DNA of 54,354 nt, counting the filler, from Jimgerdemannia flammicorona (Eukaryota), in the NCBI GenBank assembly GCA_003990765.1. It is 3 parts of 3 records of this genome, joined end to end, with 100 filler letters (N's around TTAATTAATTAA, not from the genome) between each part and the next. Parts side by side here need not be neighbours in the genome. Positions count along the whole stretch, not along the records: positions 36,307 to 54,354 come from RBNJ01002319.1; 2 more parts are not named here. The stretch is one strand, 5' to 3'. Under the pieces are notes generated by a model. That model worked only from the letters and a program-made list of their open reading frames with translations. It had not been told where the DNA came from and did not search any database. Below, piece by piece: positions 9,801 through 54,354 of the stretch. A program made the translations under genes and the position numbers. Position 1 is the stretch's first letter. The number at the start of each line of letters is the position of its first letter.

Positions 9801-10034
9801 ATCTCAAGATACAATCTCAAGTCAACTGCTCTTTAAACAAGTTCCAACCCAAGTATATCAGATCTTTTGAGATTACTGAACAAGTCTCTGTATCCTCCTA
9901 CTATCTCAAGCTACCTGAAACCATGAGAGTACACTCAGTCTTTCATATATTATACCTCAAGATCTGAAACCAGTCACCACCCTACTCTGGTTGAATTTTT
10001 AAGTCTTCTGCTCCTGTGATTATTGAAGACCATA

Positions 10035-27000: not shown

Positions 27001-30000
27001 CAAGTACTCCTTGGCTGTCCAACTGAAGATAATTACATTATCTACATATACCATCATCCATTTTTCCATAACATCTCTGAAGATACTATTTATTATTCAC
27101 TGGAAACTTGCTGGTGCATTGCACATTCCAAAGGGCATGCAGAGGTAGATGTAGGTTCTGTTAGGAGTAATGAAGGTTGACTTTTTGCTGGCTTCTGGTG
27201 TAAGGCTGATTTGATAGAATCTGGAAAACAGATCTAGGATGATATAGAATTATACCTCATTTCCTAGCATAATAAGGATGTTGCCAATATTGGACAATAG
27301 TTGTCTATCTTTCTCTGTAACCTTGTTGAGTCTTCTATAGTCTGTACAGAGTCTAGGTGCAAATTCTTCAGGTCAGCTTTCTTTCTTGAGTGCAAGGACA
27401 ATGGGTGAGGACTAGGGGCTGCTGGCTTTCTTGATGATACCAGATTCCTCCATTTCCTTGATTTCAGTCTTGAGCCATTCTCTGTATGCCAGCAGAATAG
27501 AGTGGGCTTTTTGGTAAATTGGCTTTGCTTCTCCAGTATTGACATTGTGATAGTATAGGGGCTTCTTGGTCTTGATATTCTTGAAGTCAGTGGCCAGTAT
27601 ATCTTTGAATATATACAGGAGATTCTGCAGTTCTTCTCTGAGAGGAAAGTTCTTTCCAATTATATAGGTGTGCTTATCCTGATTTTCCTCCTTCTTGTGC
27701 TCCAATTTGGTAATTCAGGTTGCTACAAGAACTCCTCTTTCTGTTGAGCCAAACTCATTTCTTCCTCGCTCTGTTTGTCTGGCTTTTGTAACTTCCTTAA
27801 TCCTTGGGTTAAGGACAGGTAGGATGAGTATTTGTGCTAGCCAATCCTTCTTCCTTACTTCAAATGGAATGGTTGGGTTGTGGTTTCTAGCAAGAAGGAG
27901 GATTTCTCTGGTGTAATCTGAATCAATGACTCCTCCTTCTATGGATATTTCACTTTTGGCCAAGCTACTTCTTATCTTGAGGATTCTAATATGGTTTGGC
28001 AGGATGGTTACTTTGATTCCTATTCCCAATATAGTAGTAGTTTGCAGTTCGAGGATTGTGTGTATTGTAGTAGACAGGTCCATTCCTGCTGCATTTTCTG
28101 ATTTGTACTGAGACATGACTGCATCAGGGTGGATTCTTCATATTTTGACTGTGATGTCTTCTTCATCATCACTGTCATCCAGTAGCTCTGGTGGTCCATC
28201 TTCTGGTTCCTCCTGGTTCTTCTTTAGCTTGTTGGTAATCTTCTTCACCTCAATGATGCAGGAGTAGTAGCGATCCAAGTGCTGGGCACAGTACATTCCT
28301 TCACCATGGGGGCACCTTTCTAATGGGGTGTATCCATTTACAATCCTTCTATACTATTTCTTCTCTGTCAACTGCTTACTTTTTCCTTTCTTCATAGTAA
28401 CCATATAGGCTTCTTCTTCTTGCTCTTCCTCTATCTCAGAGCAAACTCCTTTGTGGATGTTGATAGGAATTCTGATTTTCTTTCCCCAGTAGATGATTTG
28501 CATCTTCTGTGCACTGAGGTCAATCATTGCCTTGACTTTGTGAAGCTATTGATTGCCAATAAGGATATCATAGTTGGTTGTATTGGTTAGTGCTCCCAAC
28601 AAATCGAATCGAATTGAATTTGGCCCAAACTCGATTCGATTTGATCGAATCAAGGGTCCAATTCGATTCAATTCAAATCAAATCAAAGGTCCAATTCGAT
28701 TTAAAGTTCGATTCAAACCTTAATTTTCAAAATGTAATAACTCGACGAAAACTCATCCAAATTTAACATATTTTAGCTTGTTAGATTCACCATATTAATG
28801 TGATTCTAACAAGCTAAAGTACGTTAGATTTGGATGAGTTTATGCTGAGTTATTGCATTTTGAAAATTAGGGTTTGAATTAGACCCTCAATTTGATTCAA
28901 CTTTTGATTTGATTTGAATTAATTTGAATTGAAAAATCCCCAATTTGATTCGACTCATTTAACCCTCAATTGGATTCGATTCAAATTGATTTGACTCATT
29001 TGGGAGCACTAGTATCAATGATGACTTTAAAGACATGGTTCTCGATCTGACAGATAGTATAGGCTGATGTCTTCCTGTTATCTTTGCTTTCTTCATCTGA
29101 ATATTCTTGTGTATTGTTGGCCTCGATGATTCTGTATCCTTGATCCTTTCCAATGTCTGATATCCCTGTTCTCATTTGCTGTCTGAATGTTGAGATTTCA
29201 GCCAGCTGGCCAAAGGTTGTATTCACTTTTTGGTCCTTGAGATCCTTGAAGATATCATACTTGAAAATCTTACTCTTATGCAATTTCTGCTCCTTCTTTC
29301 CTTCACTTGATGGGGTGGTATTTCGAATGATATCTTCTACTGCTCGCTCTAGTTCAGCATCTTGTTCTAGTTCCATATCTTGATCAGCTTCGCTCTGCTG
29401 GATTTCTTTTTCAATGACTATTTCTGGTTGTTTTATCTGTATCTGGGCCTTCTTAGGAGGTCTGCCTGGAGGTCTCTTGTAGGGATCAGTTCGGACATTC
29501 TTCTTGCTTATAGTAGCAGAATAAGCTTTCTATGTATTCTTCCTTCTCATTCTTGGATTCTCCAATCTCCTCAAAGGTGATAGTATTTGCTTTTTTATGG
29601 TTCCTGGTTGTGTTGCTCAGATTGGCCTTGTGCTTAGTTTCTATTATATAATCAGAGGCATAATGGCCTTCTTTTTCACACCTGTAGCAGGTTACTGACT
29701 ACTTGTCATTTGTGGCAGCAAATTTCTATACTGGCTTCTTCTTGAACTCCTTGACTACATTACTGAGGTGTGCAGTCATTTCTGCAAACTGCTTGACCAG
29801 TTCCTCCATTGGATTGGCTCTCCTCTGCTCTTGTGGTTGGGGTTGTTATTGTGTATTCCTGTTGACTATAGTAGTTGGGACTGTATTGGTGATCCTTGGT
29901 GCTTATTTGATTTTTACTTCTATTATTCTTTCCATTGTATGGCCTTAAGGATATCTAGCAGTCTAGTATCTTTGGGCATAGGTAATCTTCTGTGCTAGGT

Positions 30001-35439: not shown

Positions 35440-36206
35440 GGGACGAGCAAACACAGATCGTGAGCTTCATTCCATCATGCAGCCTTCACACAGTTCTGAC
35501 ATACATTCGAGATTTAGGTCAAGGTCATGTTCTGCTTCAGAGACTCGACTAGGCCATGTGCCCTCTCAGCGCCAATGCTATTATCTTTAAAATGAACAGG
35601 GGATGAGTGAAATGCACAGATCGTGAGCTTCTTTCTACACACAATGCTTTACACAGTTCTGACATACAGGAGATTCAGCTCGGCCAAGGTCGTATTATGC
35701 TTCAGAGACTTGGCTAGGGCACATGCCCCCTCGTCGCCAATGCTATTCCCTTTAAAATGAACAGGGGATGAGCAAAACGCACAGATCATGAGCTTCATTC
35801 CATCGCACAACTGCACACAATGCTTCACACAGTTCTGATATACCTCAAAGATTCAGCTCAATCAAGGTCATGTTCTGCTTCAGAGACTCAGTAGGGCACG
35901 TACCCTCTCGCCACCAATGTCATTCCCTTTAAAATTGAACAGGGGATGAGCGAAAATGTACAGATCGCGAGCTTCATTCCATCACGCAGCAGCACACAAT
36001 GTTTCACACAGTTCTGACATGCCTCCGAGAATCAGCTCGGTCAAGGTCGTGTTCTGCTTCAGAGACTCGGTTAGGGCGTGTGCCACTTCATCGCCAATGC
36101 TATTCACTTTAAAAATGAACAGGGGATGAGTGAAAACGCACAGATCATGAGCTTCATTCCATCGCGCAGCTGCACACAATGCTTCACACAGTTCTGATAT
36201 ACCTCG
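35440..36206 (-). pseudogene. Degenerate tandem array of LRR exon+intron cassettes (about 180-bp unit, 4 units plus a partial), cut by gap
   Basis: Exon 36106-36023 encodes NSIGDEVAHALTESLKQNTTLTELILG; the next unit has a 1-nt deletion and the distal unit larger deletions; introns match those at 42587-43546. Confidence 0.82.
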
Positions 36207-36306
36207 NNNNNNNNNNNNNNNNNNNNNNNNNNNNNNNNNNNNNNNNNNNNTTAATTAATTAANNNNNNNNNNNNNNNNNNNNNNNNNNNNNNNNNNNNNN
36301 NNNNNN
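36207..36306. other. Assembly gap with artificial spacer
   Basis: 100-nt N run containing ttaattaattaa. Confidence 0.97.
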
Positions 36307-36845
36307 TTAACAAAATCAAGTTCTTGTGTATTTTTATTAGAAGGGAACCTAGACTATATAGACCAAAACCCTCTCTTACCCCCCTCCCAAGCACTATCTC
36401 TCTATTAATCTAAACTATTAAATTGTTCAGTAGTCTCACCATTCTAGCTATATATAACAGATATACTGCCTCCCACTATATATATCAGACTTGTCTACTC
36501 ACTAGGAATGAATCATTGACCTATTTACCATAAAAGCACATCTATATATTAGATCTAGTAATATTGAGAATGAATAAGAAATAGTCCCCCAAACCCCAAA
36601 TAAAAGCCTGAGGCAAAAGAAAAACCCCCCAACTAACCAATAAGAAACAGAAAGGATTCAAGATAGATGAGTAAAGAACTAATATACAAAACCCTCTCCA
36701 AAAGAACTAATATATAGACTAAGGTCTGAAAAGACTCCAATCCCACTTTCTGAGCCTATGGGCCTTGATATTAGCTCCCAGTTCTAGTCAGATACTACCT
36801 TATAAGGAAGGTCCCACTTTCTAAACCTGTAGACCTTAATTGCAT
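36307..36845 (-). repeat. Decayed transposon remnant, possibly LINE
   Basis: CpG-free, G-rich on the minus strand like the LINEs here; no motif identified. Confidence 0.35.
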
Positions 36846-37469
36846 TACTGTATCAGCAGGAACGTCTCCTGGCATACCCACAAGAATGGCAGGCCAATCC
36901 ACCCTTCTGTTGTACCATCAGAATGTCTTATCCCTCAAGGAGATTTTCAACGCACTCCCTATGCTCGTCTACCAGCAGTTTGTGAAGCATATGCGCGGCT
37001 GCCCGACCGCCAGGTTCTAGATGAGTCCACCGCCAATGCATTCGTACACGCCGTCCGCAGCTGGGCGATGAATCGTAGCGCAAAACCACTTCACCTTTCT
37101 GAGATTTATAGCAGTCCAATTTATTGAACTGCGGCTTCTTGACAAACAAATGCCAAGTGTGGTTCGTCCATAGACAATAACCAAAAGAAAAACCCATGGG
37201 TTTAATTTTAATATCGTTTGCCTTCAAGTTGTGCTAAAAATAAGATATATAAACAAATGTAATAATTATTTTTGCGAAATTTTGTTTGTTATAAAGGCTA
37301 TTTATTGCGCCTGGGAGATATTTTGTTTCACTGATCTGCCCCGGGTCACCTGGAAACAAGCCGCCGATTTCGTATAACCAGGTTCGACCCGAAAAGGATG
37401 TCAGCTTTATGACGGCGAGCGGGTTTGTCAAACTGGAGAATACCTGTACCCACACCCATACTCACAATC

Positions 37470-40400
37470 ATGCTAATATCCTTGTCAAAGGATACCGACA
37501 GTGACAACCCCAAAGAAACCAGAGTTCGCGTCAAGGTTTCCGCCACCGATGATCATTTGGCTGAGCTCTTTGAAAGCCATCTCTTCAACCTTCATGAAAT
37601 CCAAGAGGGTCGATCTGTCACCGTTGATGTCTTCAACTTGAAACCCAACTCTGCCGATCTCAGAAAATACGGAAAAAAGTTATTCTGGGCTCTCTTTTCG
37701 AAAAAAGAGTCCAGCTCCGCCCGGCGTCTGCTGCAGGTTATATTATCAGCTCAATTAAACGGTCGGATCCTGCTCGTACTCAACGGCGACCACGACCTCG
37801 ACGTCATCCCCTGGGAGTACACGTGGGGCAACAATACATATCTGACCAGCCTATGCAAATTCACACGCCTGCACAACCCTGGTCCTCAGCCATTTTTACT
37901 GCCCCACCTCAAACCTCAGCCGTCGAAACTTCCGTTGCGCATCGTCACTGTCATACCGGACCCCATCATTCCGCCGAACGATCCCGACGCAAAGAAATTT
38001 CCAGATCTGCATCTGAGGGATCAGTTTCAGGCACTATGTGACGAGTACGAGAACAACAATCGAACGGTATTACTGCAACGTGTGTTCCCGCCGACCGTCA
38101 ACCAAATGTACGTGTTGCTTAGGAGAAACCCTGAAATGGCCACGGTACTTCATTTTATGGGACACTGCGGCTCGCAGAACGATGGTGCGAAGGCTCTCAT
38201 TTTTGAAGATCAAGACACAGGAAGTCTCACCTTCTCTGACACGTTGCGCCTTGATCCGACAATGAATCTACGGCTGGCCTTTCTCTCTGCCTGCGATACT
38301 CACCATATCGCCCGAACCCTGATCGAAAACGGCATTCCATACGCCATCGGTTCACACTGTCCCCTGCCAGACGACATCGCCCGCAAATTCGAGTACGAAT
38401 TCTACCAGTGCCTTGGCAGCGGCTGCACGGTCGAAAAGGCAATGTTGGAGGCGCGCGCCTCCATGCACGACCCAAAAAACACCCGACAACGCGATTATTT
38501 TCCCGGTGCCATGGTGCTCTACTCGTCCACGTTTCGAGAAGAAGATGGCGCGTTCAAATGTGGGATGGGAAAGCCCACAATCGAAGATTACATGCCCCTC
38601 CACAACCTCGACGAGGTATCCTTCACGCGATATTTTTGCGGACGCAAGGAGGTGCTAATTAGGATAATCCACGTTTTGAGGCATATGGCGAAGAGAGGGA
38701 CGCAGACCTGTCCCATGTACACTATTGAAGGTATCACCGGTCAGGGCAAGACGGCGTTGGCTGAGAAGGCCGTAAGGCGGATGGCATATCTCTTCCCCGG
38801 TGGCATCTTTGCTTGGCGATTCGATCCTTCCCACGAAGTATCGGTCATGAAATATCTTCGGCGCCTGGGTCAAGTCATATTCCAGGAAGACTTCGGCAAC
38901 GACCTCGACACATTAGGACAGGCCATCATCACGAAATTCCGGCGTCATCCGACAACTTTACTGATCCTCAATCGAGCCGATGTCTTGAAGCGCGCACAAC
39001 TCAAGGACAACAAAGCTGCTGTAGCGTTGGCAGACTGGCTTCGGAAGGTTGTATCTATAAAGGACATCGCGGTTAGAATTCTCGCAACGTCGGATGAACA
39101 TTTAAAATGGACATCAGAAGAGGAAGAGATGCATCTCGACGGTTTGACAGATTCCGATATTGCGAGTGGTGTCGAGTTATTCATTCGAAATCTTGACGCT
39201 CAAGTGAGGGAGAGGATGAAAAACGAAGCAAATGCGACGCAGTTGCTGCACGACATCGTCAGGCTCACAGACGGGCATCCATTGTGTTTAGAATTCCTTG
39301 GCCATGCCACCACAAAACCGCAATATCAACATGTATCACTTAAAGAACTCGTTCATGATAATTTTAGCGCGATGCTAGCGAATGGCTCATATGAAAGTAG
39401 AAAACTCGGAACCCGTTTCCGGTCAACAATTGACAAGCTTCCAACGCAGCAGCGTATGCTCCTGTATATGTGTTCTCTCTTCACCGGACCCATCACGGAA
39501 GGAGTGCTCACGTTCGTCCGATATTTTGTTGACCTGGCTGGTTCGTCGACCGAAAAGATTGACTCTAGCATTGACGCCATTAAAGGGAACCTGTCACAAC
39601 TCTGCGATGGAAAGTTGTTGTCAAAAAGAGATGATGAATACAAGATCCACATCGCTTTTAAAGAAGGTGTGAAACAGTGTAATTCTGTGATGAAATTGCG
39701 GCTTCGTTTGCCGATACTCGGCGTATATGATGACACGTTTGTAATTGGCGTTGCCAAACCATCTAAGTATGGTGAGTAATACAACTGAAACACCATCATT
39801 TGGTTATGCTCTATGCACTTCTTTTTCAACTACCTTCTGATTTTCCATTCCAGGAATTGCCATGATGTTCGAGTGGCAACTTCGAAGTATCTGCAATGAG
39901 GAAAAGAACCGGGCTTATGGCATACAATATTACGACATTCTCGGTACCAGCGGCCACAAACTCAAAAGGGACGGCGTTCAGCAGCAAGTATTATTTGGTG
40001 GATTGGTTGTGTTCCGACGCAAAGCATCCGAAATTCTCCATACTAGCTTTCCTCAATTCTGCGTGGAGCACATCATACCGATGGTAACAGAGACGAAATC
40101 GCCGTTCATTCTGTGTTTGTATCATACCAATACCGATTCCGTCAAACGGTCAACAACAAATGTCAAGAAAAATATAATTCTAATGAAGAAAGCCATGGAG
40201 GCTTTGCGATCTGGTCTGGAGATGACGCACTTTATAATTAGAACGGAACCTCTTCCCGGTGAGTTGTAATTTCTTCCACTCCCTGAACAGCAATTGTTGG
40301 AAACAAGGCAAACTCACAATACCATCATCGAATTTCTTGATTTAATACATCAACTGATAGAAAATATCCATGTAATAGAACGGTTCCCAAATAGCCTACA

Positions 40401-43400
40401 AGGTGAGCGGAAATTTCGGTGAACAGGTTCAACTAATAGGAATCACTCACTAACAAAGATGCCTTCCATTCACCAAGCCAAAGGCGGCAATGAGAACCAA
40501 CAAGAAATGGAGGTAGATTTCGGCAACGTCAACATGTATGGAGAATTTGTTGGGCGCCAGCAAGAGCTCCAAAAATTGGAAGAACTACTGAATGATGAGA
40601 AAATTCGCTATATCACCATTCGCGGTTTCGGCGGAATGGGCAAAACGGCATTGGCAATTCAAGCGGTCAATAGCTTCAATTCTGGCAGAGTTCTGGTGAT
40701 ATCGCTCGTTGGAAACCCAAGTTCAGATTCAGTAATCTCAACGATCGCCGGACTTCTCAACATCGACATTGAAACGACTCGAGATCCTATAATTCGACAA
40801 AATTTAGTGATGGCCAAGTTAGCTAGTGGAGGACCGATACTGGTTTATCTTGACAATATGGAGGACGTCAAACATGCAACTGAACAGGGAGACTCAGCGA
40901 CGAAAAAGGATGCAATTGCTTTGGTTCGATTTTTCCACCGAATACCGGAGAACATCAAAATTCTTGCAACATCAAGAACCACTCTCGATTGGCCTAATGA
41001 AAAATTCGTCGACTTGAATGGCTTAGCACCACATGATGGTATGCAGATATTTCGGCAATGGGCTTCTCAACGTTCAAATGACATTGATGATGACAATGCA
41101 ATGAAAATTAGCGAGCTTGCAGGCGGCCACCCATTGTCAATTCGTCTTCTCGGTCGTGTCTTCAACAACTATAGGGAATCTGTTGATCAATTTATCAACA
41201 ACTTCAGCAACCGGCTATGGAATGCAACGGACATTCTTGAAGAACGTCATGGCTCGGTCGAAATTTGTATCCGGTTTAGCTTTGATTACCTAAATGATAG
41301 TCTTAAATCATTTCTTGGCTGGTTAAGACTATTCGATGTTCCATTCTCAGCGACACATGTGCAGAAGGCTTTGGATCATAACACTACATCATCTACTCAA
41401 ACCATTTTACACAAACCTTGGCAACGGATCAGGCAGCGCCTCACGTTTAAACAGAAAACTTTAGATCACAACACTACATCAAATTTACACAAACTTTGGC
41501 AACAGAGCTGGCTGAATGAGCTCAAGTACGATTCTAGGTTCGGTGACTGGCGTCCCAGGTTTATGGAGAAAGACACAACGTTTTACATCCTACATCCGCG
41601 ATTACGTGACTTCCTCAACCACCAATTTGGAGATGACGAATTACCGTTTTATACCCTACGTGGCTTCCCCAACATCCTGTTTGGCGATGCCAAAAATTCC
41701 GTTACCGACATGTGGTATGATTCAGAGATACAGTTTTATACCGCCCTATGCTACGGAGTAGGTTTTGGCGTTGCAAATGATCTAGTGAAGCAGATTGAAT
41801 GGTGCACCAAAGCTGCAATGAATGGACATGTAGAAGCGCAGCTAACCATTGCAGCATGTTACGAGGAAGGAGGGGGCGGCATTGACGTCGACAAGAAGAA
41901 GGCGTTTGAATGGTACTTAAAATCCGCAGAGGCCGGCGACAAAGGAGCACAAGCAAAGGTGATGAATTACTATTTGCAGAGAGATGGGATTGAATCTGAA
42001 TGCTATCTTCATTGGTACGAAATCCATGATGAAAACATGACAGAAGGTCTGTCGATCAAGTTTGATCTTTCTCTTCCGCTGTTACATCGCGCAGCTGAGG
42101 GTGGTCATGTGGCATTGATCCGATCACTGCTCAGTCAACCCAACGCCAACGTCGAATTGAAGGACAGGCATGGTCGGACCCCGCTGCAACTAGCCGCCGA
42201 GAAAGGCCACGTCAATGTGTTAGAGCTACTTGCATTCGTATTCAATGCAAACACTGGTGCAAAGGATAAGGAAGGTAACACGCCAGTGCACCGCGCCGCA
42301 GAAAACGGGCATGTCGAGTTCATGGTCATACTCATTGCCGCGCTCGGGGCGGACGCTAACACCAATAACATCGACGGATGGACGCCATTGCACATGGCTG
42401 CGAAGAGAGGACACATCGAAATCGCGAAGCTGCTCGTGACCGAGTTCGGGGCGGACGTCAATGCCATGAACAGCGAGAGCTTTATGCCGCTACGCTGTGC
42501 CACGGATTGTGGGCACGTCGAGGTCGTGAAATTTCTTGCGGCCGCTGTAGTCGAATCTCCGACCTTGACCACGCTGGATCTCAGATGTATGTCGAAACTG
42601 TATGGGGAATTGTGTTCAGCTGCGCGACGGGATCAAGCTGACATTTTATATGTTCTCTCATCCATGATCAGACAACAACATCGGTGGCGAGGGGACACGC
42701 GCCCTAGCCGGGTCTCTGAATCAGAGCACGACTTTGACCAACCTAAATCTCGAAGGTATGTTGGTTCTGTGTGGAGCATTTGTGCAGCTGCGCAATAGAT
42801 TTAAGCTCACGGTCAGTTTGTGTTCAGGCAACAGCATTGACGACGAAGGGGCGTGCGCCCTAGCTGAGTCTCTGAAGTTGAACACGACCTTGACCACGCT
42901 GAACCTCGAAGGTATGTCGGAACTGTGTGAAGCATTTTTTTTGGCTGTGTGATATAATCAAACTCATGTTCAATCATCCAACCCTTGTTCATGTTCAGGG
43001 AACAGCATCGGCGACAAGGGGGCACGTGCCCTAGCCGAGTCTCTGAAGCAGAACACAACCTTGACCACGCTGATTCTTTACAGTATGTCGAAACTGTGTG
43101 AAGTATTGTGTGCAGCTGCGCAATGGAATTAAGCTCACGATCTGTGCTTGTTCGATCATCCGTCCACTATTCATGTTCAGGGAACGGAATCCACGACGAG
43201 GGGGCACGTGCCCTAGCCGAGTCTCTGAAGAAAAACGTGACCTTGACCACGCTGAATCTCTACAGTATGTTGAAATTGTGTGCCGCATTGTGTGCAGCTG
43301 CGTGATTGAATAAAGCTCACAATCCGTGTGTGTTGGCTCATCCATTCCCCATTCGTGTTCAGAAAACAGCATCGGTGTTGAGGGAGCACGCGCCCTAGCC

Positions 43401-44139
43401 GAGTCTCTGAAGCAGAACACGACCTTAGGCACGCTGAATCTCGAAGGTAGGTCGGAACTTTGTGAAGCATTGTGTGCAACCGTGCGATGGATCAAGCCCA
43501 CAATCTGTGCGTGTTCACTTATCTATCCATATTATCTTGGGAGCAGGTGTTTTCGGCGTTGCCAATATATATATTCCTTCCTCATCTAAGCTGAGCATCA
43601 TTCTTGATGAGAACATCATGGATAGGGATCTAATCGCCCAATTCATCGCAGTGCTCGACGTGCGAGCTGTCACCGAACTACGTCTCCGAGATATGGCTTA
43701 CGAGGATGTCATAAAGCGTGCACAGTTGGACGGAAGAATCCTCGTAACATGTAATACCGACTACCTCTCGGAGCACGGGATGGCTCGGAATGGCATACTG
43801 GTGCTTTGGGGACGGCTTGGCAACAAACGGTTTGTCCGGCTTACAAAGAAAGAGCGTAGAATAGTAGTTCCTGGGTTGTTTCAAACACATCGCCTTAAAA
43901 TGGAAGAGTAAGTATTTGATACATCATTGTTGTAGTATTTGGGGATGTTAAGGCTAATAGTTAATAATGTCTCGTATAGGGTTCGCAATTACAATTTGGT
44001 TCGATTTGCCATTTTGTCCGGAAATGATCTCAACGACTTCAAATGGGAAATAAGGCCCCCAACTGATGAAGAACTCACCCGGTACTTTCTGAAGTATGTC
44101 GAAAAGGAGGGAGCCCTTCCGTATCTTCCGGGGGAATAG
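37470..44139 (+). CDS. Giant NLR-like protein, 1932 aa: CHAT protease, NB-ARC, linker, NB-ARC, SEL1, ankyrin, LRR, DUF5615-type PIN. Exons 37470-39771, 39854-40258, 40361-40402, 40478-42586, 42672-42755, 42828-42911, 42999-43082, 43181-43264, 43363-43446, 43547-43907, 43980-44139
   Basis: All ten introns are GT-AG and the joins keep the frame (5799 nt). Motifs: VLHFMGHCG and AFLSACDT; GITGQGKT; GFGGMGKT/LVYLDNMED/LATSR/GGHPL; KAFEWYLKSAEAGD; GRTPLQLAA, GWTPLHMAA; NSIGDKGARALAESLKQNTTLTTLxL; IILDENI...RILVTCNTDY. The exon 2-3-4 join is least certain, so this could be two tandem genes split near 40270-40459. Confidence 0.75.
42587..43546 (+). repeat. Tandem exon-intron repeat encoding ribonuclease-inhibitor-class LRRs
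   Basis: Five exons of exactly 84 nt, all phase 1, separated by mutually similar introns (gtatgtcg...ctgtgtg...gttcag). Confidence 0.92.
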
Positions 44140-45138
44140 GTATACGTAATTTACACTGTCAATTTTATATATCGAGTGATTACCAAATGGATGAAATGAT
44201 AACTTTAAACGCTACTCCAATGTCTCAGATCCCCCATGCCTCAAGACGCACAGCGACGTAGGCTCAAAGAAGGAAGACTCTAAAGAAAAATTACGATGGT
44301 CATGAAGTTGGCTCTATATTTTAGGTTTCGAGCAACCTATCATTTTGAATTGCAATGATATAAACAGGATTTTGAGATGGTAGAATGTGCGAATTTTTTT
44401 CTAAGCGAGGTTCGATCTCTTTTAATGGAAATAGTGTGTTTTGATGTTGAGCATGCACACAGCCGTGCGTCGTGGAAAGAACTGGTCAGAATTGCGATGT
44501 GACCGAGTTGGCGTATACGTGTGATTGTATGGGTTGGTTGCCCAGTGGAGGGTTCTAAATGTGCGAATTGGATGGGCTTTACAGCTCAGAATGGCTCATT
44601 CTCTGGTTATTGCATGATTAAATAGAAGATATATTCTTATCTTGAAAAGGGGAAACTGAGTGAGTGAAGCCGGGCTGTGTCTCTTGTGGCTGCTATCCTG
44701 GAAAGCTACATGACCTGTGAATGAGCCATTCGTCCAACTATCAAGAGGATGGTTTACAAGTGTTCAGCCAACAGTACAGAGATATACCATCAATAATGGT
44801 GGTATTCTCTGAATATTGGGAAATAAAGCTAAAAGGTGAAAGATCTTTATAATAGTAGGCATATTTATTGGTCAAACTGAATTTATCTATAGTCCAATGT
44901 TGTGCTGCACATTCTTTAGGTAGCTGAAAAGCCGACACCTCCACATGAAGGAACTGATGAATTATCCTAACATTATGCATGTCGTTTAATTTTTCGGCGA
45001 GCGCGTGCGTGGTATCGAGAGCACAATGTTGTCAGATTTCTTCCTCTGGCACATTACATGTACCTCAAATAGCAGCCTATTTGAGAGTGTATTGCACTAC
45101 ATCATGTATTTACATTACAAATACATGATATGAACCAA

Positions 45139-46728
45139 TGGCTTTGCAGATGACATGGTGGTCAGGCTGGGCTTGGTGGCAGATGTGGCTGCATTGATGA
45201 GTTCTCCGGGTCAGCTGAATTGGCACAAGTGTGAGACCCTAGTACTTGGTGGTAGAGTAGTGGATAGGGACATGATTGGAACAATTGTCCTAGTTGGGAG
45301 GTAGTCTGATATCTAGATATTTATTTCTTAGTGTATGGCTTATTATTATCCAGGATATAGTGGAAGCAAAAGCTGGTAAAATGGAGGAATGCTCTCCTGG
45401 AATAGAGAGATTGCTAATATTATTGGCAGAGAGAGTGATGGTGCTGAATATACACTGGATGCCTAAGCTATAGTACCTGGGATATTATTTAGACTTCTCT
45501 ACATAGGTGATAAAGAGACTTCTGAAGATAATCAGATCTTAGATTTAAATCAAGAGGTGTAGTCAGATAGGCTGTAATGTGTTGATATTATCAGTGGATC
45601 AGAGAGGACTTAGACTTGTTGACTTTATAAAGTATCTGTACTGCTTCAGAGTATGGTAATTAAAATAAGTCAGCAATTTAGAGGGTCAAAGTTGGGTAAC
45701 TCTATTGCAGAAGGTTTGAAAGATATAATTCTTCTTTAGGGAAATTTCTGGTGATTTGATATCCTTTATAGTACTAGAGGGAAGCCATCAAATGTAATAT
45801 AAGAACTTCTGGTAGAAAGTAGTAGATAGGGCCTATTGGATAGAAATCTACTAATATGGTGATGAGAAAGAGATAAACTAAAGATCAGAGATGTGGTAGT
45901 GAGATCATATTCTGTTAGAGAGCTCTCCAGAGGTTGACTTTTGATTTAAGAATGATGTAGAGTATCAGAGAGGATAGGGTAGAGATCTATTGCCTAGAGC
46001 TAGCAAGTGGTAGGCATTAGCAAAGTATGAGATTAGGCAGATATCTAATCATAGAGTACAGAAGTGTTGAGATAGCTCTCTCTCAAGTTTTGAGTAATAT
46101 ATTGGTAACTCTTGTGGCAGAATATAATACTAAACTTTTGCTCAGAATATTTGATAGAAGGGAGCTCATTTAAATGTGAGAAGTGCTTTAATATTGAGTA
46201 GAAGAATAGAGTGGTACAAACTCCAGAATACTAGCTGAGAGAGTATAAGATACTGTTAGATTTCTGGTTGACTATTGAGGGTCAGTTGAGAATACTATCT
46301 TTAAGGGGTAGATGGGAGACAGTGGAGTGCTCTTTAGTTATAGCTAGTGGGAGGAGTTGATAATGAATGGCTTTCTGTAGAGTGAACCCTTGTAGTTTGG
46401 GTTGATCTATCTGAATATTAGCTGTTAGTTTTTGAGGATAGTCAGAGATTACATATTACTAGGAGTAAGAATAGTAAGATAAGAGTAGTTATTATTGGAA
46501 TTGTTGAATAGATTGTGGGCTGAGTGGAGATCCAGAGAGAGTTTATACTATAGGTTAGTGAAAAGAATTTGTACAAATAGTAGGAAGAGGATTTAGATAT
46601 TTGAGAAAGTGTATCTTTTATTGAGAGTAGGCTGTATAGAAGAATTGAGTAAGTAGTAGAATTTTGAAAATATATTATATAGGTATAAATTGGATTGATA
46701 ATAAAAGTGAGAGTTCAAGAGTCTATAA
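45139..46728 (+). mobile_element. 5'-truncated degenerate L1/Tx1-like LINE
   Basis: Starts at FADD (tttgcagatgacat), colinear with 52720-54354, ends ...caagagtctataa. Confidence 0.85.
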
Positions 46729-46957
46729 TATATATACATATATATACTAATAACTCCTTAGCTTAGTACTTAGTTAGTGAGTTGATCAGTTTTCTCTACA
46801 AATACTAGATAGAGTAAGATACTATTAGTGAGCTTGAGCCTATAATATTAATTATCTACTCTATGACCTAGTATCTTATTTCTGACTCATACTCTATATA
46901 GATCCAGAGATCACTTCTTTTATATATTTGAATATAAAGAACTAGATATATATATAG

Positions 46958-48851
46958 TATGATGGTTGATCTAAATTAGTAATATAAATCAGGAGAATAG
47001 ATATTTAATTATAGTATCTGAATCTAATTTTCAAATATAGTATATAGCCTTATAAATAGCAGTCATTTCACAAATGTTAAAGTTTTGATGAATGTTAATA
47101 TTTTTACAAATGTCAAGATTTCATAGATATTAAATCTTAACAATTGTCAAAGATTTAACAGATGTTAAGAATTAATACTTGTAAAAAGTGACTCACAGAA
47201 AATATAGTTATAACTTAGCTACCTTATAGCTAGCAAACTTATATAAATATCTCTAGTATCTAGAGTAAATAAACCTCAGATCAAAATAGTTCAAAGCAAA
47301 GAGAAAGCAAGAGAACTTATAAGTCTGCAGGCAGATATACTTTGAACTCACCCACCCCTGTATCCTGAGGACTCTGTAGACAAAGAAGATTAAGTTTTCA
47401 AGATATAGAAATCCAACATACTTATATAGTTATATGTCTACTACACTATAACTTGGTGCCTATTGGCTGGTAATTCAAGATGAATCTCTCACTTTCAAGC
47501 TGAACAATGAACAACTGCTATCACTTGAATAACCATATAAATTAAACTAAGATATCTAGACAAGATAGATATAAAACTACCAGTATTCTACAGATATACT
47601 TCAGATGAATCAATCATCATCTTCATTGATGATTTTGAGTAATATACTGCCATAAGAACCCTGACAGCAAGGCAGCAAGTAGCCCTCATGTTCTTTAGTC
47701 TCTGAGACTTAGCAAGAGCAGCATTCATAGCTATACCCTATGTGGGAAATGATGATGATGCTGTACTGACACCACAGAAGACCTGGCTTAGAGCTATCTA
47801 CTATATAGATAAGATCAAGCAAGCTCTGAAGAATCAGCTCAATACAATATATCAAGGAATGAGTAAAGATCTAAATACATTCTATACCAGAATTCAATAT
47901 CAGATAATTCTTACAGATTATAATGCTACTATCTGAGATCAAGTAGCTGAGACAATCTTTATGAAGAAAGTCTACCTAGAAATAGCTATAGCCATCTACT
48001 CATTACTAGTAGTCCTGGATCTAGCACAAAAAGTCACCTATGTCCAGTGATACTAGATAGTCAGACATCTATAAGACCATATAATGGAAAGAGTCACTGG
48101 AGTTAGAATCAAAACACTCAAAGCAATTAGTATAATCCCCACCACAGTGATCAATTGAAACACACCTCAACTAAGAGTTACTGAGCAGTAAAGAAACAGT
48201 GATCCTATGGAGGAACTAGCTAAGAAGTTTGCTAAAATAACTATCTATCTAGGAGATGTGGTAAAGAAAATCAGAAGAAGAGATCACTATCTAGTTCAGA
48301 AGTTTGCCACTACCTCAGATAAGAAGAGAGATATCTGTTATACTTATAGAAAAGAAGGCCACTACTCATATGAATGCATAAGTAAAACTAAGTATAAGGT
48401 ATAGCTAAGCAATACTACTCAAAATAGAGAACAGGCTAATACTATTACCTTTGGAGAAATTGGAGAATCTGATGAAGAAGAATGGGTGGCCTACCCTATA
48501 CAGACCACTAAGAAGAATATTCATAAGAAACCCTATAAGAGACCACTAGAGAGACCTAAGAAGAACTCAGTAGAGAAGTGAAGATAATTGCAAGACCTCT
48601 GTCTATATAATCTATCAAATTGAAGATAGAATCTTTGAGGCCATCATTGATACTAGAGCAGGAGGATGTCTTCTCAGCAAGAAAGCAGCAGACCATCTAG
48701 ATTGGGAGGTTGAAGAAGTGACCAAGTTGGTATTTGTCACAGCAGATGAAATAAGAGCTATACCTCTAAGAAAGATATGAGATATCTTTATCAAGTTTAG
48801 AGAAGCAACCATCCTAATAGATATCATTATAATCAATGAAACCAACTATAG
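46958..48851 (+). mobile_element. 5' part of a family B Gypsy copy (LTR 46958-47450, gag, protease), interrupted by LINEs
   Basis: LTR like 33975-34437, PBS-like tggtgcc, CYTYRKEGHYSYEC knuckle, IIDTRAGGCLLS protease; preceded by ATAG. Confidence 0.87.
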
Positions 48852-49157
48852 CAGGAGAAGGTGTTACGGTGGGAGGGGCTGTTGGGGGATCTGCTGACTG
48901 GCTGGTGGGTGGGTTGGGGTCCTCAGGGGGGTCGACGTCGGGGTTTGGTGGTAAAGATCTGTGAGCAGAGTGGTGGGAGGGTGGCGATAGTGTTAGACAA
49001 AGTGGTCTTTCATTGGGAAGGGGTAGGGGGAAGGGGCCCCCCTAGGGGGATCGGTTAGGGGGTGGGATCAATGTATTTATATGGGATAGATGGGTATTAA
49101 TAAAAGCGAGGAGTCCAAGAGACTATAAAAAAAAAATAAAAAAAATAAAAAAAAAAA
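48852..49157 (+). mobile_element. LINE 3' fragment with A-rich tail
   Basis: G-rich, retains CpG, ends ggagtccaagagactat plus A-rich tail. Confidence 0.75.
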
Positions 49158-52100
49158 GAAATCAAGGTCAGAATTTGCTGTCATGATGTGTTTCAGAGGC
49201 TTGGTGGTGACTGCAAGGACAATCCTGGGGCTGGTGGCAAAGGAGGTGAAAGAGGCAGCATCGGTGAAGTTTTTGAAGGGGAAAGTAGGGGTCGAGGTGG
49301 GGTTTGAGGAAGAGGAAGCATTGCTGGCTACCATGGAGAAGTGGGTAACAGTGGGTGGAGTTGTGGTCTCTATAGCCAGGTGCATGTGCTGGGACCCCCT
49401 GAGTGGTACAGTTAACAGTGCTGGATCTTCCTATAGTGTTGAGAGAGAGGGCCAGAGAGCTGATTGTGGGGGCAGTCAAGGAATATGGTGAGATTGTGGA
49501 TATCGGGTTTAAGTTCTGGGAGAGTACAGAGCTCCGAACTGGTGACATTGATGTTTGGGTGAGGCTGGCTAGAAAGGAGAACACAGGGAAGATGAGGGAT
49601 TGGCCAGTGACTCTGAAGTGGAGACTGGTGGAGTGTGAGGTCACATGGGTGAAGGGGACTCAGGAAGAGGAGGAAGATTTGCTTGAGGCTCTGGAGGATC
49701 TGGCAGGTACAGTTGAGAGGAGGAGATTGGCTTGGAAGGAGTATGTAGACAAGACAGTGGTGGAAGTAGTCGATGGAAAGAGGATCAGGATGGATTGGGG
49801 GACCTGGGAGAAGATGCAGGGGAGGAGAATCCAGAAGGAGCTGCTGGTGAAGTTGGGCAGTAGTGGGGCTGACAGCAGCAAAGAGGATGGGAGAGCTGAA
49901 TTGTGTGAGAATGCCTGAGCAGGGGAATGTGGGACAGCCCAAGGTGGGGTCCAGGGTGGACTTAGGGAGAAGAGAGAGAGTAGTGTGGAGGAGGCAGATG
50001 TAGAAATGAGCAAAGGGGTTCACTCTCAGCATAGTGTCCCAGGTGGGGCAGGGGGTGAGGAGGAGTTGCTGGATATACCAGATGAGGAGTGGGATGAGTC
50101 AGTAAGGAGGAGTGCTTTGGTGGACCCAGAGGTGGGGGGTGATTGGGTCACCTAGGGTATGGATGAGGAGAAGTGACTGTGGAAGACTCTGGAAGGGGTG
50201 GCAGTGGAGGAGCTGGGGGGAGAGGACTTCCGGGTTATGGAAGAGAGGCATTGGGAGGAAATCCTTCATGGTGAAGAGGTGCTAAGAAAAGTGAGGAATG
50301 AGATTCTGGTAGTTCTCTTGGAATCAGTTGAATACCAAGTCAATGATCAGAGAGATGAGGAACTTAGAGGGATTGCAAATGACAGGGCAGCTTACTTGTG
50401 GGGCTCAAGGAAGGGATTGGAGAAGTGGAGGGTGGTCTGCACAGACTATCAGTCGGAGATGGAGGTGGTGGATGGGGTAGAATGTCAAGAAATCTTGGAG
50501 GTATTGGATGCTCAGGCTGTCGCAGAGGTTGACTTGGAAGCAGAGTGGCACTTGGATCTGGCTGGGGATGAGATGAGCATAGAATACTAGGCTGGGATCT
50601 CAAATCCAAATATTATTCAATATGAATAGTACACCTAGAATATTCTCTTTAAATGTGAATGGGCTATGGGGGGTAGCTAGGAGGAAGTACATATTTGGAT
50701 GGCTAAAGGAACTGGATGTGGACCCCTTTTTACTGCAGGATATCTGTTATGAGGTGGATGTGGACTTACAAGATTGGACTAAGGAATGGGGGGGGGGCTG
50801 CAGTGTGGACAGGGAGGGTGGGCATCTTAGTTTGGAAGGGGATGGGGAACATTGGGGACATTGGACATTGGGGGACTCGGTTGGTGTAGTGAGTATGGAA
50901 GAGGTCAGGATAGTGCCCATTGACAGTTGGGTCATATTACTGCTCAGCAGAGAGAGGGGAATGGGTGGATTGGATTCAGGATTTGAAAGAGGCTGGTGTC
51001 TTGGGTGAGATTGGGTTTGACTGCCTAGTGGGTGACTTCAACATGGTGCGGGATAAGGGGATGGACAGGACAGATGGTGGGAGAGGAATGAGGAGCAGGA
51101 GTAGTGGGTTGGATGATTGGTTCGAGGTAGAGAGGTTGAGTTTTTTGGTTGATTCAAGAAGATGGTTTTGGAGCAATCATCGAATTTATACTCACTGAGT
51201 GACAGGGCTGGGCTCCAGAATCAACTGGCTATTGATGGTGGAATGCTGGGGAGTAGATGTCTGGGCTATGCTGAAGGTGGTTTGGTGTCCTTGATCAGAT
51301 CACTGGGGTTTGTTAGGAGGGGGGAGGTTTGGGGAAAGTGGGGAGGGGCCTGGACATTGGCAACTAAATTCTTCTTTGTTGGAGGTTGGGGCTTTATGGG
51401 CAGACTGGAAGAAGGAGATTATTGGGAAAATAGAGAGGTAGTGGGAACAGGGCCTAGTGATTGGAGACTGCTGGAGGAGGCTGAAAGTGAGTGCTCAGGG
51501 GTACTGGAGGGAAGCCAGGAAAGGAAGGTCAGTGGTAGAGGGTGCTATAGGCCTCACAGCAATTGGCAGCACTCATGGAGAGATGGGCAGGAGTGCTAGA
51601 AGACAGAGAGGTGGCCAACTGGCATTTTGTGAGGATCCAGAAAGAAGTAGAGGAGCTTAAGAAAGTGTTATGTAGGGAGGAAGAGGTTAGGCTGAAGGGA
51701 ATAGTGGCATGGCTGAGGTGGTAGGGGCTTGAGGAGGGGGAGAGACCTACTAGGTTTTTATCATGGATGTTACAGGCACAGAGAACTAAGCAGCAGTGGG
51801 ATGGGGTCCTGGATGTGGATGAGGAGATAGTGGTGGGGACTCTGGCGATTTTGGGATTGCTGAGGACCTGGTGGGAGGATTTGTGGAGCAAGGAGGAAGG
51901 GGGGGAGGATGTGTGGAACATTGAGAGGCAGCTGGAGGATTGGCATCTGGACCCTGCAATGGGTCTGGGAACTCTGGGGGACCCAGTGAGAGGAGAGAAA
52001 GTTTGCAAGGTCTTGGCTACAACAAGTAAGGAGATGGCTCCAGGGGAGGATGAACTTTCCTGTGATTTTAGGAAGAAGATGGCTGGGGTGGCAGAGGTAT

Positions 52101-54354
52101 TGAAGGAAATGATGGAAATGTATGGTGAGATTCTTCAATCTGGAACTTGGATTGGAGACCAGCACCTAGGGCTGGTCTCCTTGCTCTACAAAGATAAGAG
52201 GAGATGGGAAGATTGGAAGAACTAGCAGCCAATCATGCTACTCGACATGGACTGCAAACTGGTGACTAAGATTTTGGTGATAAGGCTACAGGGAATCGCT
52301 CAGCAAGTTCTGGGGGTGGAGCAATGAGGATTTGTCAGTAGCTGGTTGATCCACGATGGGACAGCTTGGGTACATGGTGTGATTGAAGGGGCTCAGGCTG
52401 TAGGGGTGGATGGTAGATTGGTGTTTTTGAATCAGGAGAAGGCATATGATAGAGTGAGGAGGGTCTGGTTGGAGGGGGTATTAAAATGAGTTGGTGTTCC
52501 CCCAGGGTTCCAAAGATCATTGATCAGCCTTTTGGAAAACAGTCAGGCTGCATTGGTCATCAATGGCCACAGGGGTGTAACCTTCCCTCTTGGTCGTGGG
52601 ATGCTGCAAGGAGACCCTTTGTCACCCATCTTATATGCCCTCTCCCTGGAGCCCCTCCTGGACAGGATCTGGTGTCGAATTGGGGGGTTGGATATTCTAG
52701 GGATAAATTGAAAGATGGGGGCCTTTGCAGATGACATAGTGGTTAGACTGGGCTTGTTGGCAGATGTGGGGGAATTAAGAAGGTCTGTGGAATGGTATGA
52801 GAGGGGCTCTGGTGCTAAACTCAATTGGTACAAATGCAAGACTCTGGTGCTAGGTAGTGGAATCATTAGCAGTGATGTGATTGGGATGGTGGTGCCAGCA
52901 GGAGAGCCAGTTTGTTACCTGGGGATCTACTTTTCAGTGTTTGGGTCTCTTCTCCCCCATGCTTGGTGGGATCAACAACTCCTGGAGTGGGGTATTGTAC
53001 TTTTGCAGTGGGGTGGTTAGCATATGACCTTGGCAGGAAGGGTAATGGTACTGAATATGTATTGGCTGCCGAAGCTGTGGTATGTGGGGTATCATCTAGA
53101 CTTCTCAGCTTGGGTGGTCAGGAGCCTGTTGAAGATGGCGAGATCATGGATCTGGGCAGAGTGGCAAAGTCAGTTAGGATGGGAGGTTCTTACCCTACCA
53201 GTGGAAAGAGGCAGGCTGGGTTTAGTGGACCTTACTAAACATCTTCTCTGCTTGAGAGCCTGGTGGCTGAGGAGGGCGAGCAAGCTGAGGGGTCAGGAGT
53301 GGGTGCCACTCATATAGAGGGTGTGGGAGATCTAGTATTCCCACCATGGAGATTCTGGAGACCTGCTTGCAATGGTGGCCATAGATGGGAGCAGGAGGAT
53401 GCAGTATAAAGGCTTTTGGTAGTGGGTGGTGGATGGTGCTAAGAAAATTGGACTTTGGTGGCAGAGTGAGGAGGGAGAGAAGGATTGGGGACTGCAGATG
53501 TGGAGATGGGACAGGCTACTGCTGGGCAGTATTTTGGTGGAGGACTTCCAGCTTAGTGATAGAATGGAGTGTTTGTGGGGCTTAGGTGGGGACCTTTGGC
53601 CTGAAGCCAGGCAGAGAGTTGGGATTGGCAAGGAGTGGGACTGGAATGGTCTCTGGATTTGGAGCAAGCAGGTGATGCAGTGGCTACCCCTCAAGTTCTG
53701 GGTGGTATGGTGGTGAGTTCTACAGTGAAATGTGATGTTGAACTATCAGTCTGGGCACTTGGTGGCTGGTGGCACATTTGAGTGTGAGGAATGCTTTGAT
53801 GTTGGACAGGAAGGGGGAGTGATACAAATGCCTGAACATTGGCTTGGTGAGTGTGATGTTTTGGGGGTGATTTGGTATTGTATTGTGGACCATTTAGGAT
53901 TGCGAGCCCTGGAGGGAGGGGAAGGGGAGAGGTGGGGAGAGCTCCACCATAGGCTGGTATGAGGGGTAGGGGATGAATGGATGACCCTCAGTTAGGCTCT
54001 CGTCATATGGGTTGGGATGGCTGGGCATTAGGTACATGTATTTGAGGAGAGCCAGTGGGTTGGGGTTGGAGATAGGGTGGCACATTGGGAATGGTTACTA
54101 CTGGATATTTTGAACAGCTGGTGGTAAGGGTGGGGGCCAGGTGGGGGGAGTCACAGGGATTTGGTACAGTGTATCTCCCAGAAAAATGGCAGGAGGATTC
54201 AGATGGTATGTGACTGGGTTATCCTCTGGTAGGGGAGTGTGGAGGGTAGAGGGGTGGATCAAAGGGGTATCAGTTGAGGGGATGGGGTGATATTGTATTA
54301 TTATTATTATAGATGCCAGCACTCACGGGACGCCTAAGTGAATATAAAAAAAAA
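49158..54354 (+). mobile_element. L1/Tx1-like LINE, near full length, degenerate (ORF1 remnant about 49180-50590; ORF2 from 50622)
   Basis: APE: IFSLNVNGL, LLQDI, LVGDFN; RT: APGED, QPIMLLDMDCKL, GMLQGDPLSPILY, AFADDI, YLGI; C-terminal CEEC...EHWLGEC; poly(A) at window end. Multiple stops and frameshifts. Confidence 0.9.

Follow-up and report, generated by a model that had tools for sequence, protein, structure and literature searches.

A divergent DUF5615 PIN-like domain with two substituted acidic residues in a putative NLR-like receptor locus of Jimgerdemannia flammicorona

We have analysed a stretch of 54,354 nucleotides from Jimgerdemannia flammicorona, a member of the Endogonales (Mucoromycotina). 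This stretch, called the window here, consists of three parts of three records of assembly GCA_003990765.1 joined end to end, with 100 filler letters between each part and the next; positions 36,307 to 54,354 come from RBNJ01002319.1. Our subject is a predicted PIN-like domain of about 172 residues, encoded on the plus strand by two exons (43547-43907 and 43980-44139) at the end of a locus that resembles those of NOD-like receptors (NLRs; NOD, nucleotide-binding oligomerisation domain). Upstream of this domain the locus encodes, in order, a CHAT protease, a first NOD, a second NOD of the NB-ARC family, Sel1 and ankyrin repeats and a series of leucine-rich repeats (LRRs). The coordinates are collected in Table 1. 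With a central NTPase (NB-ARC, 35.2 bits) followed by C-terminal repeats (Ank_2, Sel1 and LRR_6-like), it has the layout of a signal transduction ATPase with numerous domains (STAND) or NLR-like receptor.

A sequence-only reading of this DNA had quoted a peptide from 43547 to 44139 and assigned it to a DUF5615/Mut7-C PIN domain. Translation places the peptide where it was reported: positions 43549-43908 encode a stop-free stretch of 120 residues that includes IILDENI, VRAVTELRLRDMAYEDVIKRAQLDGRILVTCNTDY and GILVL. Exon 10 (numbered as in the 11-exon model described below) matches the Pfam family DUF5615 (PF18480) with 29.0 bits (E 1.1e-6), residues 17-101 aligning with profile positions 3-90 of 110. 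The curated gathering cutoff of PF18480 is 23.8 bits. The sole further Pfam match of the 120-residue stretch is weak and sub-threshold. A public protein found in a profile search (P0012) also passes the cutoff, with 27.4 bits. This is the NCBI entry 'hypothetical protein BC938DRAFT_476286, partial [Jimgerdemannia flammicorona]', and it is identical to the window gene model at 188 of 188 aligned residues, its last 17 residues excepted. In the public record this partial hypothetical protein bears the Pfam label already. NCBIfam has no family for P0012 or for the fungal relative P0007, and the best hit of a sequence profile search of the PDB has an E value of 0.16.

Other comparisons lead to the same family. 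Among the 30 nearest clusters in a protein atlas, 18 are bacterial DUF5615 clusters (top score 0.90, with 209 of 256 features in common). An AlphaFold model of P0007 (pLDDT 82, pTM 0.78) has a single match at E<=0.001 in BFVD, a phage DUF5615 protein (E 6.3e-4, prob 1.00, TM 0.48/0.56). The model of the window exon 10 itself is weak (pLDDT 65.9), and the same phage protein is ranked first (E 0.056, prob 0.98). The Pfam score, the atlas clusters and the BFVD match bear out the family attribution of the sequence-only reading, and we place the domain in the Mut7-C group of PIN-like domains, within its DUF5615/COG4634 branch.

The similarity to bacterial members is remote. A Bradyrhizobium exemplar scores 85.6 bits on DUF5615, against 29.0 bits for the window domain. 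The fungal family aligned by hhalign with six plasmid DUF5615 proteins gives an E value of 2.2e-4 and a probability of 44.7%, and a tblastn search of plasmids with P0007 yields a weak match (E 0.1) to a Bradyrhizobium 'DUF5615 family PIN-like protein'. In a joint MAFFT alignment with the six plasmid proteins the domain stays colinear from the aspartate that follows strand 1 as far as the C-terminal hairpin encoded by exon 11. The Bradyrhizobium exemplar also matches PIN_10 (34.8 bits), while the window domain matches DUF5615 only. The earlier description 'VapC45-like' is thus a looser label than DUF5615/COG4634. By family threshold the window domain is DUF5615, yet it is divergent, eukaryotic, intron-split, extended and apparently catalytically degenerate.

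The closest relatives are fungal. A phmmer search with the 120 residues against 1.84 billion representatives returned nine proteins at E<=0.001, eight of them true relatives. With P0013 from the profile search, these make up the nine relatives used here besides the window protein. P0004 (1,608 aa, E 1e-21) was rejected as a relative: its score is a chance summation over SdrD-B-like repeats. Where a relative is named, it is from Jimgerdemannia flammicorona or Endogone sp.; P0003 and P0010 are both named from J. flammicorona, and both gene models look truncated. Six of the nine pass the DUF5615 cutoff and the other three score 19.1, 19.6 and 15.9 bits. One relative, P0005, carries a protein kinase domain (109 bits, Ser/Thr/Tyr-type) followed by a DUF5615 domain (32.4 bits); its gene model apparently reads through the conserved intron of the domain. 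The other subfamily members are free-standing or kinase-fused and retain all four acidic residues where aligned. The window domain is one member of a small, intron-bearing subfamily that is restricted to the Endogonales and has an added C-terminal helix. A narrower family alignment, run against metagenome contigs, gave 67 pattern matches and zero relatives.

The earlier range of 43547-44139 was correct as a location, and it turns out to comprise two exons of one domain separated by an intron at 43908-43979. The in-frame TAA that closes the 120-residue stretch is part of the GTAAGT donor of this intron. We accept the intron because the relatives run colinear into exon 11, which aligns with P0003, P0005, P0007, P0008 and P0013 and whose hairpin aligns with the C-terminus of six bacterial DUF5615 proteins; taken by itself, exon 11 has zero Pfam matches. 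At the position of the intron P0005 has a 30-residue insert, and the gene models of 4 of the 9 relatives end there. We read both as signs of a probable conserved intron and of imperfect gene calls in the relatives. The public model P0012 differs in its last 17 residues through an extra terminal splice (window 44121-44280, plus strand). The unspliced end, with its stop codon at 44137-44139 and ALP followed by Tyr, suits the ALP[FY] tail of the five relatives that align with exon 11 better than the end of P0012 does.

The attachment of the domain to the LRRs can be followed at the exon level. The last LRR exon ends at 43446 in phase 1 and the following exon begins at 43547; the five 84-nt LRR exons and exon 10 all begin in phase 1. 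LRR_6 is the sole Pfam match for each of the five LRR exons, every one being sub-threshold alone (best 19.5 bits against 23.4). The exon and intron unit has been duplicated in tandem (TRF period 182, 3 copies, 79% matches). The intron at 43447-43546 is homologous to the five other LRR-unit introns (identity per column averages 75%) and deserves the name 'LRR-type intron' that it had been given.

Transcript-like support comes from contigs of one public run, X1, which is RNA by guess only and has 42% of the sampled words of 37400-44400. Contigs that lack introns argue for cDNA in this run. Of the 10 introns in the 11-exon model, 6 are seen as spliced GT..AG joints. One contig, record 8 (330 nt, 0 other letters), spans 43446>43547 with 47 nt on its shorter side and covers positions 43545-43827 of the genome. 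Exon 10 is therefore spliced to the LRR exons, the opposite case having been named in the sequence-only reading as an argument against the fusion, and in the open gene model the domain is joined in frame after the LRRs as that reading had proposed. X1 cover is absent over 43858-44111, homology being the single line of evidence for the intron at 43908-43979.

X1 also shows an unusual pattern at the LRR exons. Over 42842-43603 (plus strand) the word depth is about 7,900-28,600, compared with 5-45 in unique parts of the gene, and many chimeric joints link LRR units with foreign inserts. The high depth and the chimeric joints suggest that this organism expresses LRR units of a very large family whose members are nearly identical.

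The DUF5615 family is almost entirely prokaryotic and linked to toxin-antitoxin systems, in keeping with the sequence-only reading. In its counts for COG4634, Matelska 2017 gives 1536 sequences for Bacteria, 117 for Archaea and 4 for Eukaryota, and in 7 of the 7 plasmid DUF5615 loci that we fetched a DUF433 gene lies directly upstream. When the window, translated in six frames, was searched with a profile of the seven plasmid DUF433 proteins, the best E value was 0.04, in an A-rich stretch, and the best tblastn match to DUF433 in the window has an E value of 0.006 over 17 residues. There is thus no DUF433 partner in the window, and the domain is therefore not part of a toxin-antitoxin module.

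Could the domain simply be bacterial sequence, present as a contaminant or newly acquired by horizontal transfer, perhaps from an endobacterium, and mistaken for part of the fungal gene? The almost wholly prokaryotic distribution of the family and the bacterial identity of the nearest atlas clusters would suit this explanation. We consider it extremely improbable given that the domain is split by a spliceosomal-type intron, is joined to the LRR exons by another and is found spliced in a contig; its closest relatives are fungal and come from two genera; the phmmer search returned no bacterial protein at E<=0.001; and the DUF433 partner is missing from the window. The introns, the conserved intron position within the domain, the relatives from Jimgerdemannia and Endogone and the retrotransposon-rich surroundings point to a resident fungal gene. 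The term 'prokaryote-style' used earlier is too strong: the domain is not a fresh bacterial insert, its subfamily bearing an intron, occurring in two Endogonales genera and having an extra C-terminal helix.

The large exon matches NB-ARC (35.2 bits, cutoff 23.5), Sel1 (42.5 bits) and Ank_2 (110 bits), and its translation shows P-loop and Walker-B-like strings. A model that starts from the ATG at 40459 has eight exons and 1,022 residues, with no internal stop and with GT-AG at every intron. Upstream, the open reading frame (ORF) at 37413-39779 carries CHAT (62.6 bits, E 5.3e-17 in Pfam) and also a P-loop NOD. The first and second NODs are 26% identical over 307 residues (E 5e-9). The stretch 37470-44139 (plus strand) contains two complete paralogous NODs in tandem and would be either a receptor with two NODs or a pair of closely packed NLRs.

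Whether this is one gene or two depends on a short region between the two NODs. In a separate gene the large exon would start at ATG 40459; joined by splicing to the upstream exons, it would begin at 40478. X1 record 4 splices the CHAT ORF to 39854-40258 and then to 40361. Read-through from 40361 meets a TGA at 40420, just 36 nt ahead of the ATG. A candidate 75-nt intron at 40403-40477, with a GTGAGC donor at 40403, AG at 40476-40477 and CTAAC about 24 nt upstream, would remove this stop and leave one open frame of 1,932 codons in 11 exons, in which the domain exon is exon 10. Record 4 is 601 nt long; exon 2 accounts for 405 nt of it, and the shorter side of its first joint for 43 nt. At the second joint 39 nt are matched beside the joint, out of 153 nt remaining on that side, and therefore the contig would leave the genome line near 40399-40402, that is, at the 40403 donor. 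The joint 40402>40478 is absent among the X1 joints listed. From the candidate intron and record 4 we think it fairly likely that the CHAT-NOD and NB-ARC-LRR-PIN-like parts form a single gene of 1,932 aa. The CHAT protease is present in the same locus as the PIN-like domain, a feature expected of CHAT-controlled effectors of the gasdermin or Craspase type; its presence in the same polypeptide would follow from the single-gene model.

The state of the acidic residues bears on the activity of the domain and not on its homology. The four acidic columns were scored on a joint alignment with 15 relatives (9 fungal and 6 bacterial) and are numbered after P0001. Aspartate is found after strand 1 in all 14 relatives that have a residue there, and in 15 of 15 relatives at each of the other three columns. 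The window copy keeps two of the four invariant carboxylates (D20 and D71) and is alone among the compared copies in having tyrosine and asparagine, at positions 51 and 69. The tyrosine stands where the helix that follows strand 2 begins, and the asparagine takes the first aspartate position of the T-x-D-x-D turn. Record 8 reaches 43827 and therefore covers the codons of both substituted residues, which are identical in the X1 contig and in P0012. The two changes, D>Y and D>N, that had been remarked on in the sequence-only reading are thus genuine departures from the family. P0003, the closest paralogue, has aspartate at all three acidic columns that it spans, which confines the losses to the receptor-borne copy. 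Residues that are invariant in the nine-sequence family alignment (V41, R47, T67, D71, W87, G88, L90, F95, R97, L98, R103 and others) are all kept by the window copy. Identity with P0003 is uneven: 20 of 49 positions (40.8%) in the N-terminal half and 76 of 91 (83.5%) in the C-terminal half. Matelska 2017 ascribes an exceptional role to the carboxylate with which the crossover helix begins at its N-terminus. Judged by the secondary structure of the modelled relative, Y51 may occupy this position.

Because two invariant carboxylates are lost and the rest of the fold is conserved, a non-catalytic role appears the most likely. The explanation to which we lean, with moderate confidence, is that an NB-ARC-Sel1-ANK-LRR receptor bears the domain at its sensor end as a PIN-like module without catalytic activity, which would act as bait, adaptor or binder. 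The receptor-borne domain would no longer cut nucleic acid. It sits after the Sel1, ankyrin and leucine-rich repeats, at the end with which NLRs usually sense. It could mimic the free paralogues as a bait or integrated decoy, serve them as a homotypic adaptor, or bind RNA or protein. The executioner would then be the N-terminal CHAT protease, provided that this is on the same polypeptide.

The sequence-only reading had left two possibilities side by side, a C-terminal RNase effector possibly released by CHAT or an inactive integrated decoy. With two of four carboxylates left, the evidence leans towards the inactive or integrated alternative, and an active effector appears less likely than a non-catalytic module. 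As an effector, the domain would be switched on by oligomerisation or by a putative CHAT release and would degrade RNA, an activity predicted for bacterial PIN-like toxins. The family is one of predicted toxin nucleases, two of the four aspartates remain, the asparagine could still bind metal, and the locus, probably even the same transcript, also encodes CHAT (62.6 bits). Should the NB-ARC-LRR part be a gene by itself, it would have no other effector, and Kaur 2021 describes a prokaryotic conflict system with TPR repeats and a C-terminal PIN that is predicted to cleave transcripts. We nevertheless regard an active effector as unlikely: the window copy alone lacks two carboxylates found in 15 of 15 relatives, and with P0003 intact where it can be aligned, the losses belong to the receptor-borne copy specifically. 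Our literature search found no nuclease activity for any DUF5615 protein and no paper using the term 'DUF5615'.

Several points weigh against an inactive sensor module. The assignment of Y51 to the crossover helix derives from the secondary structure of a relative's model and not from a structure of the window protein. Asparagine can still ligate a metal ion. COG4634 is listed in Matelska 2017 with 3-5 predicted active-site residues, and the requirement for active-site residues may be looser in this branch. The uneven identity with P0003 could stem from gene conversion of the C-terminal half and not from selection. If the NB-ARC-LRR part is a separate gene without an N-terminal effector, the C-terminal domain would be the sole effector candidate. 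Several of the 'free-standing' relatives are visibly truncated models, which leaves their true architectures uncertain, and longer fused relatives were not found in the single-domain and family-profile searches, which is weak evidence. The structural comparison is a further such point. Of the fold check proposed in the sequence-only reading, the clear match is the phage DUF5615 protein in BFVD; among solved structures no PIN domain scored above background, Foldseek giving no match in the PDB at E<=0.001. VIA-align gave a best Z of 5.9 in the wide search and 5.7 in a second look, both with generic three-layer alpha/beta folds, and the PIN-like MCPIP1 (3v33_B) reached a Z of 4.2 (rmsd 3.5, 94 residues aligned). 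This lack of a solved match agrees with Matelska 2017, where the Mut7-C group is described as having a reduced fold and as lacking a solved structure.

If the domain is dead, one specific use for it would be as a homotypic adaptor, in the manner of effector-associated domains, with the dead copy recruiting free or kinase-fused paralogues that have their catalytic residues. The domain is found in three contexts (at the C-terminus of the receptor, after the kinase of P0005 and in short proteins), the conserved C-terminal half could be an interaction surface, and the principle of effector-associated domains is set out for prokaryotic and metazoan conflict systems in Kaur 2021. The short relatives may, however, be truncated models of bigger genes, and P0005 is not tied to the same genome. 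We consider this particular role decidedly unlikely.

The substitutions could also mark the onset of pseudogenisation in a decaying remnant, an exon that was captured by duplication in the LRR array and is now drifting. Such a history would account for the loss of two invariant residues and for the low identity (40.8%) of the N-terminal half with P0003, in a locus that lies among broken retroelements and whose LRR units are recent tandem duplicates. It is very unlikely in view of the fully open frame of 1,022 (or 1,932) codons with canonical splice sites, the splicing of the domain exon in a transcript-like contig, the 83.5% identity of the C-terminal half with the paralogue and the retention of all family-invariant residues in the nine-sequence alignment.

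A broader scheme, which we put forward as possible but doubtful, would join the inactive sensor module to its origin. A bacterial toxin-antitoxin nuclease domain would have been domesticated in the Endogonales and then integrated as a dead copy at the sensor end of a CHAT-bearing double-NOD LRR receptor, where it would report an attack on the free and kinase-fused paralogues that are still active, or recruit them. The receptor would then be the fungal equivalent of the integrated-decoy NLRs of plants, or its domain a new kind of homotypic adaptor. This would place NB-ARC-LRR receptors in a fungal subphylum for which published surveys report none.

We compared the locus with several known systems. 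The DUF433-DUF5615 (COG2442-COG4634) pairs, predicted type II toxin-antitoxin systems with DUF5615 as the toxin, found for example on plasmids of Bradyrhizobium, Xylella, Synechocystis and Picosynechococcus, belong to the same Pfam family, with a colinear domain and, in the relatives, the same four acidic columns. The bacterial proteins differ in being stand-alone, of about 122 residues, and in overlapping an upstream DUF433 gene, whereas the window domain has about 172 residues, an intron, an extra C-terminal helix and no DUF433, is fused to a receptor and keeps two of four carboxylates. VapBC45 of Mycobacterium tuberculosis (PIN_10 cluster, with the DUF433 antitoxin Rv2018) is placed in the same Mut7-C group and related to COG4634 in the classification of Matelska 2017. 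The window domain has no PIN_10 match, and the likeness is drawn from this published description and not from the VapC45 sequence. Utp23, as described in the same source, has an inactive PIN-like domain that has lost acidic active-site residues and is kept for general RNA binding. It differs from the window domain in belonging to the Fcf1/VapC-like group and in being a ribosome-biogenesis factor and not part of a receptor, and the two are not specifically related.

In plants, NLRs can carry integrated decoys, for example RRS1-WRKY and RGA5-HMA. The window locus resembles these in having a non-canonical domain after the repeats of an NB-ARC receptor, apparently free paralogues of that domain and an integrated copy that has lost residues required for the original activity. 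The kingdom and the integrated domain are different, and the window case is known from sequence alone.

Fungal NLRs with an N-terminal CHAT or S8 protease beside gasdermin-like genes (Clave 2022, as cited in Wojciechowski 2022) share the order of N-terminal CHAT followed by a NOD, and CHAT is among the fungal NLR effector domains in the published set summarised by Wojciechowski 2022. The window locus differs in its two NODs, its LRRs and its C-terminal PIN-like domain, and no gasdermin-like gene was found among the window ORFs of at least 110 residues. The prokaryotic conflict system outlined in Kaur 2021, with a variable N-terminal effector, middle TPR, GreA/B-C and a C-terminal PIN, has a similar overall logic. 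Its PIN is predicted to be active and is another version of the domain, and it has no NOD, so that the likeness, as far as that outline goes, is one of layout alone. PADLOC matches were of the ankyrin type, and neither the domain nor the CHAT ORF had any.

The presence of an NB-ARC receptor with ribonuclease inhibitor (RNI)-type LRR exons in the Endogonales contrasts with published surveys, in which fungal NLRs have no LRRs and Mucoromycotina proteomes have no NLRs. As far as the surveys of Dyrka 2014 and Wojciechowski 2022 describe them, fungal NLRs have ANK, TPR or WD repeats and N-terminal effectors, and no LRRs. According to Muszewska 2021, NLRs could not be identified in six Mucoromycotina genomes or in 14 predicted Mucoromycotina NCBI proteomes; Endogonales may not be among them. 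The four eukaryotic COG4634 sequences counted in Matelska 2017 might include related ones, which bears on the novelty of the present domain. Our literature search found no paper that combines the PIN domain, NLR, integrated domain and fungi.

The receptor ends in a domain that is otherwise known almost solely from bacterial toxin-antitoxin pairs. If the module is indeed dead and serves as bait or adaptor, the integrated-domain principle of plant immunity would extend to fungi, and this would be a concrete case of a toxin domain recruited to a eukaryotic receptor. J. flammicorona forms ectomycorrhiza-like symbioses, and non-self sensing by such a host may bear on plant, bacterial or viral partners. 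We rate the interest of the case as moderate, since it concerns one locus and inference from its sequence.

Table 1. Position of the features of the receptor locus in the window
Feature	Position	Strand	Remarks
Upstream exons 1-3: CHAT protease, first NOD (P-loop NTPase), linker	37470-39771, 39854-40258, 40361-40402	+	Pfam, X1 record 4
Large exon: NB-ARC (second NOD), Sel1, ankyrin repeats, first LRR strand	40459-42586	+	Pfam, gene models
Five LRR exons and introns	42672-43446	+	84 nt for each exon, phase 1, one 28-residue RNI-type LRR each
LRR exons	42672-42755, 42828-42911, 42999-43082, 43181-43264, 43363-43446	+	Gene model
LRR-type intron, last LRR exon to domain exon	43447-43546	+	100 nt, GT..AG, phase 1; spliced joint in X1 record 8
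Exon 10 of the 11-exon model	43547-43907	+	Short linker and DUF5615/PIN-like core; PF18480 match, X1 contig record 8
Column after strand 1, D20	43606-43608	+	Window Asp; Asp in 14/14 relatives with a residue there
Column at the N-terminus of the next long helix, Y51	43699-43701	+	Window Tyr; Asp in 15/15 relatives
First column of the T-x-D-x-D turn, N69	43753-43755	+	Window Asn; Asp in 15/15 relatives
Second column of the T-x-D-x-D turn, D71	43759-43761	+	Window Asp; Asp in 15/15 relatives
Intron inside the domain	43908-43979	+	72 nt, GT..AG; reading frame open only once removed
Exon 11	43980-44139	+	C-terminal beta-hairpin of the DUF5615 domain, subfamily-specific helix and ALP[FY] tail
Stop codon TAG	44137-44139	+	End of exon 11 (translation)
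Spliced joints in X1	39771>39854, 40258>40361, 42586>42672, 42755>42828, 42911>42999, 43446>43547	+	X1 contigs

The remainder of the window consists largely of broken Ty3/gypsy-type and hAT elements. Rfam gave zero matches on 36000-48000, and 8 of 8 opposite-strand and downstream ORFs have no Pfam family. Just upstream of the CHAT ORF, at 35670-36083 (minus strand), the LRR part of P0012 has two short matches, each with an E value of 0.006 and with 68-74% identity over 19-22 residues, which may represent a fragment of another LRR gene. In the region 48000-54354 G strongly outnumbers C on the plus strand (GC skew 0.39-0.54) and the sequence is purine-rich; both strands have numerous ORFs of medium length that match no Pfam family, and there are no direct repeats of at least 30 nt. 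Two broken Ty3/gypsy-type copies, at 18295-21849 (plus strand) and 26326-28137 (minus strand), have a dUTPase beside the reverse transcriptase; the Pfam matches are to dUTPase, RVT_1, rve and RT_RNaseH, in interrupted frames. Further transposon debris includes a Tf2-1-like SH3 fragment at 9521-9967 (plus strand) and a hAT-family dimerisation fragment at 12705-13106 (minus strand).

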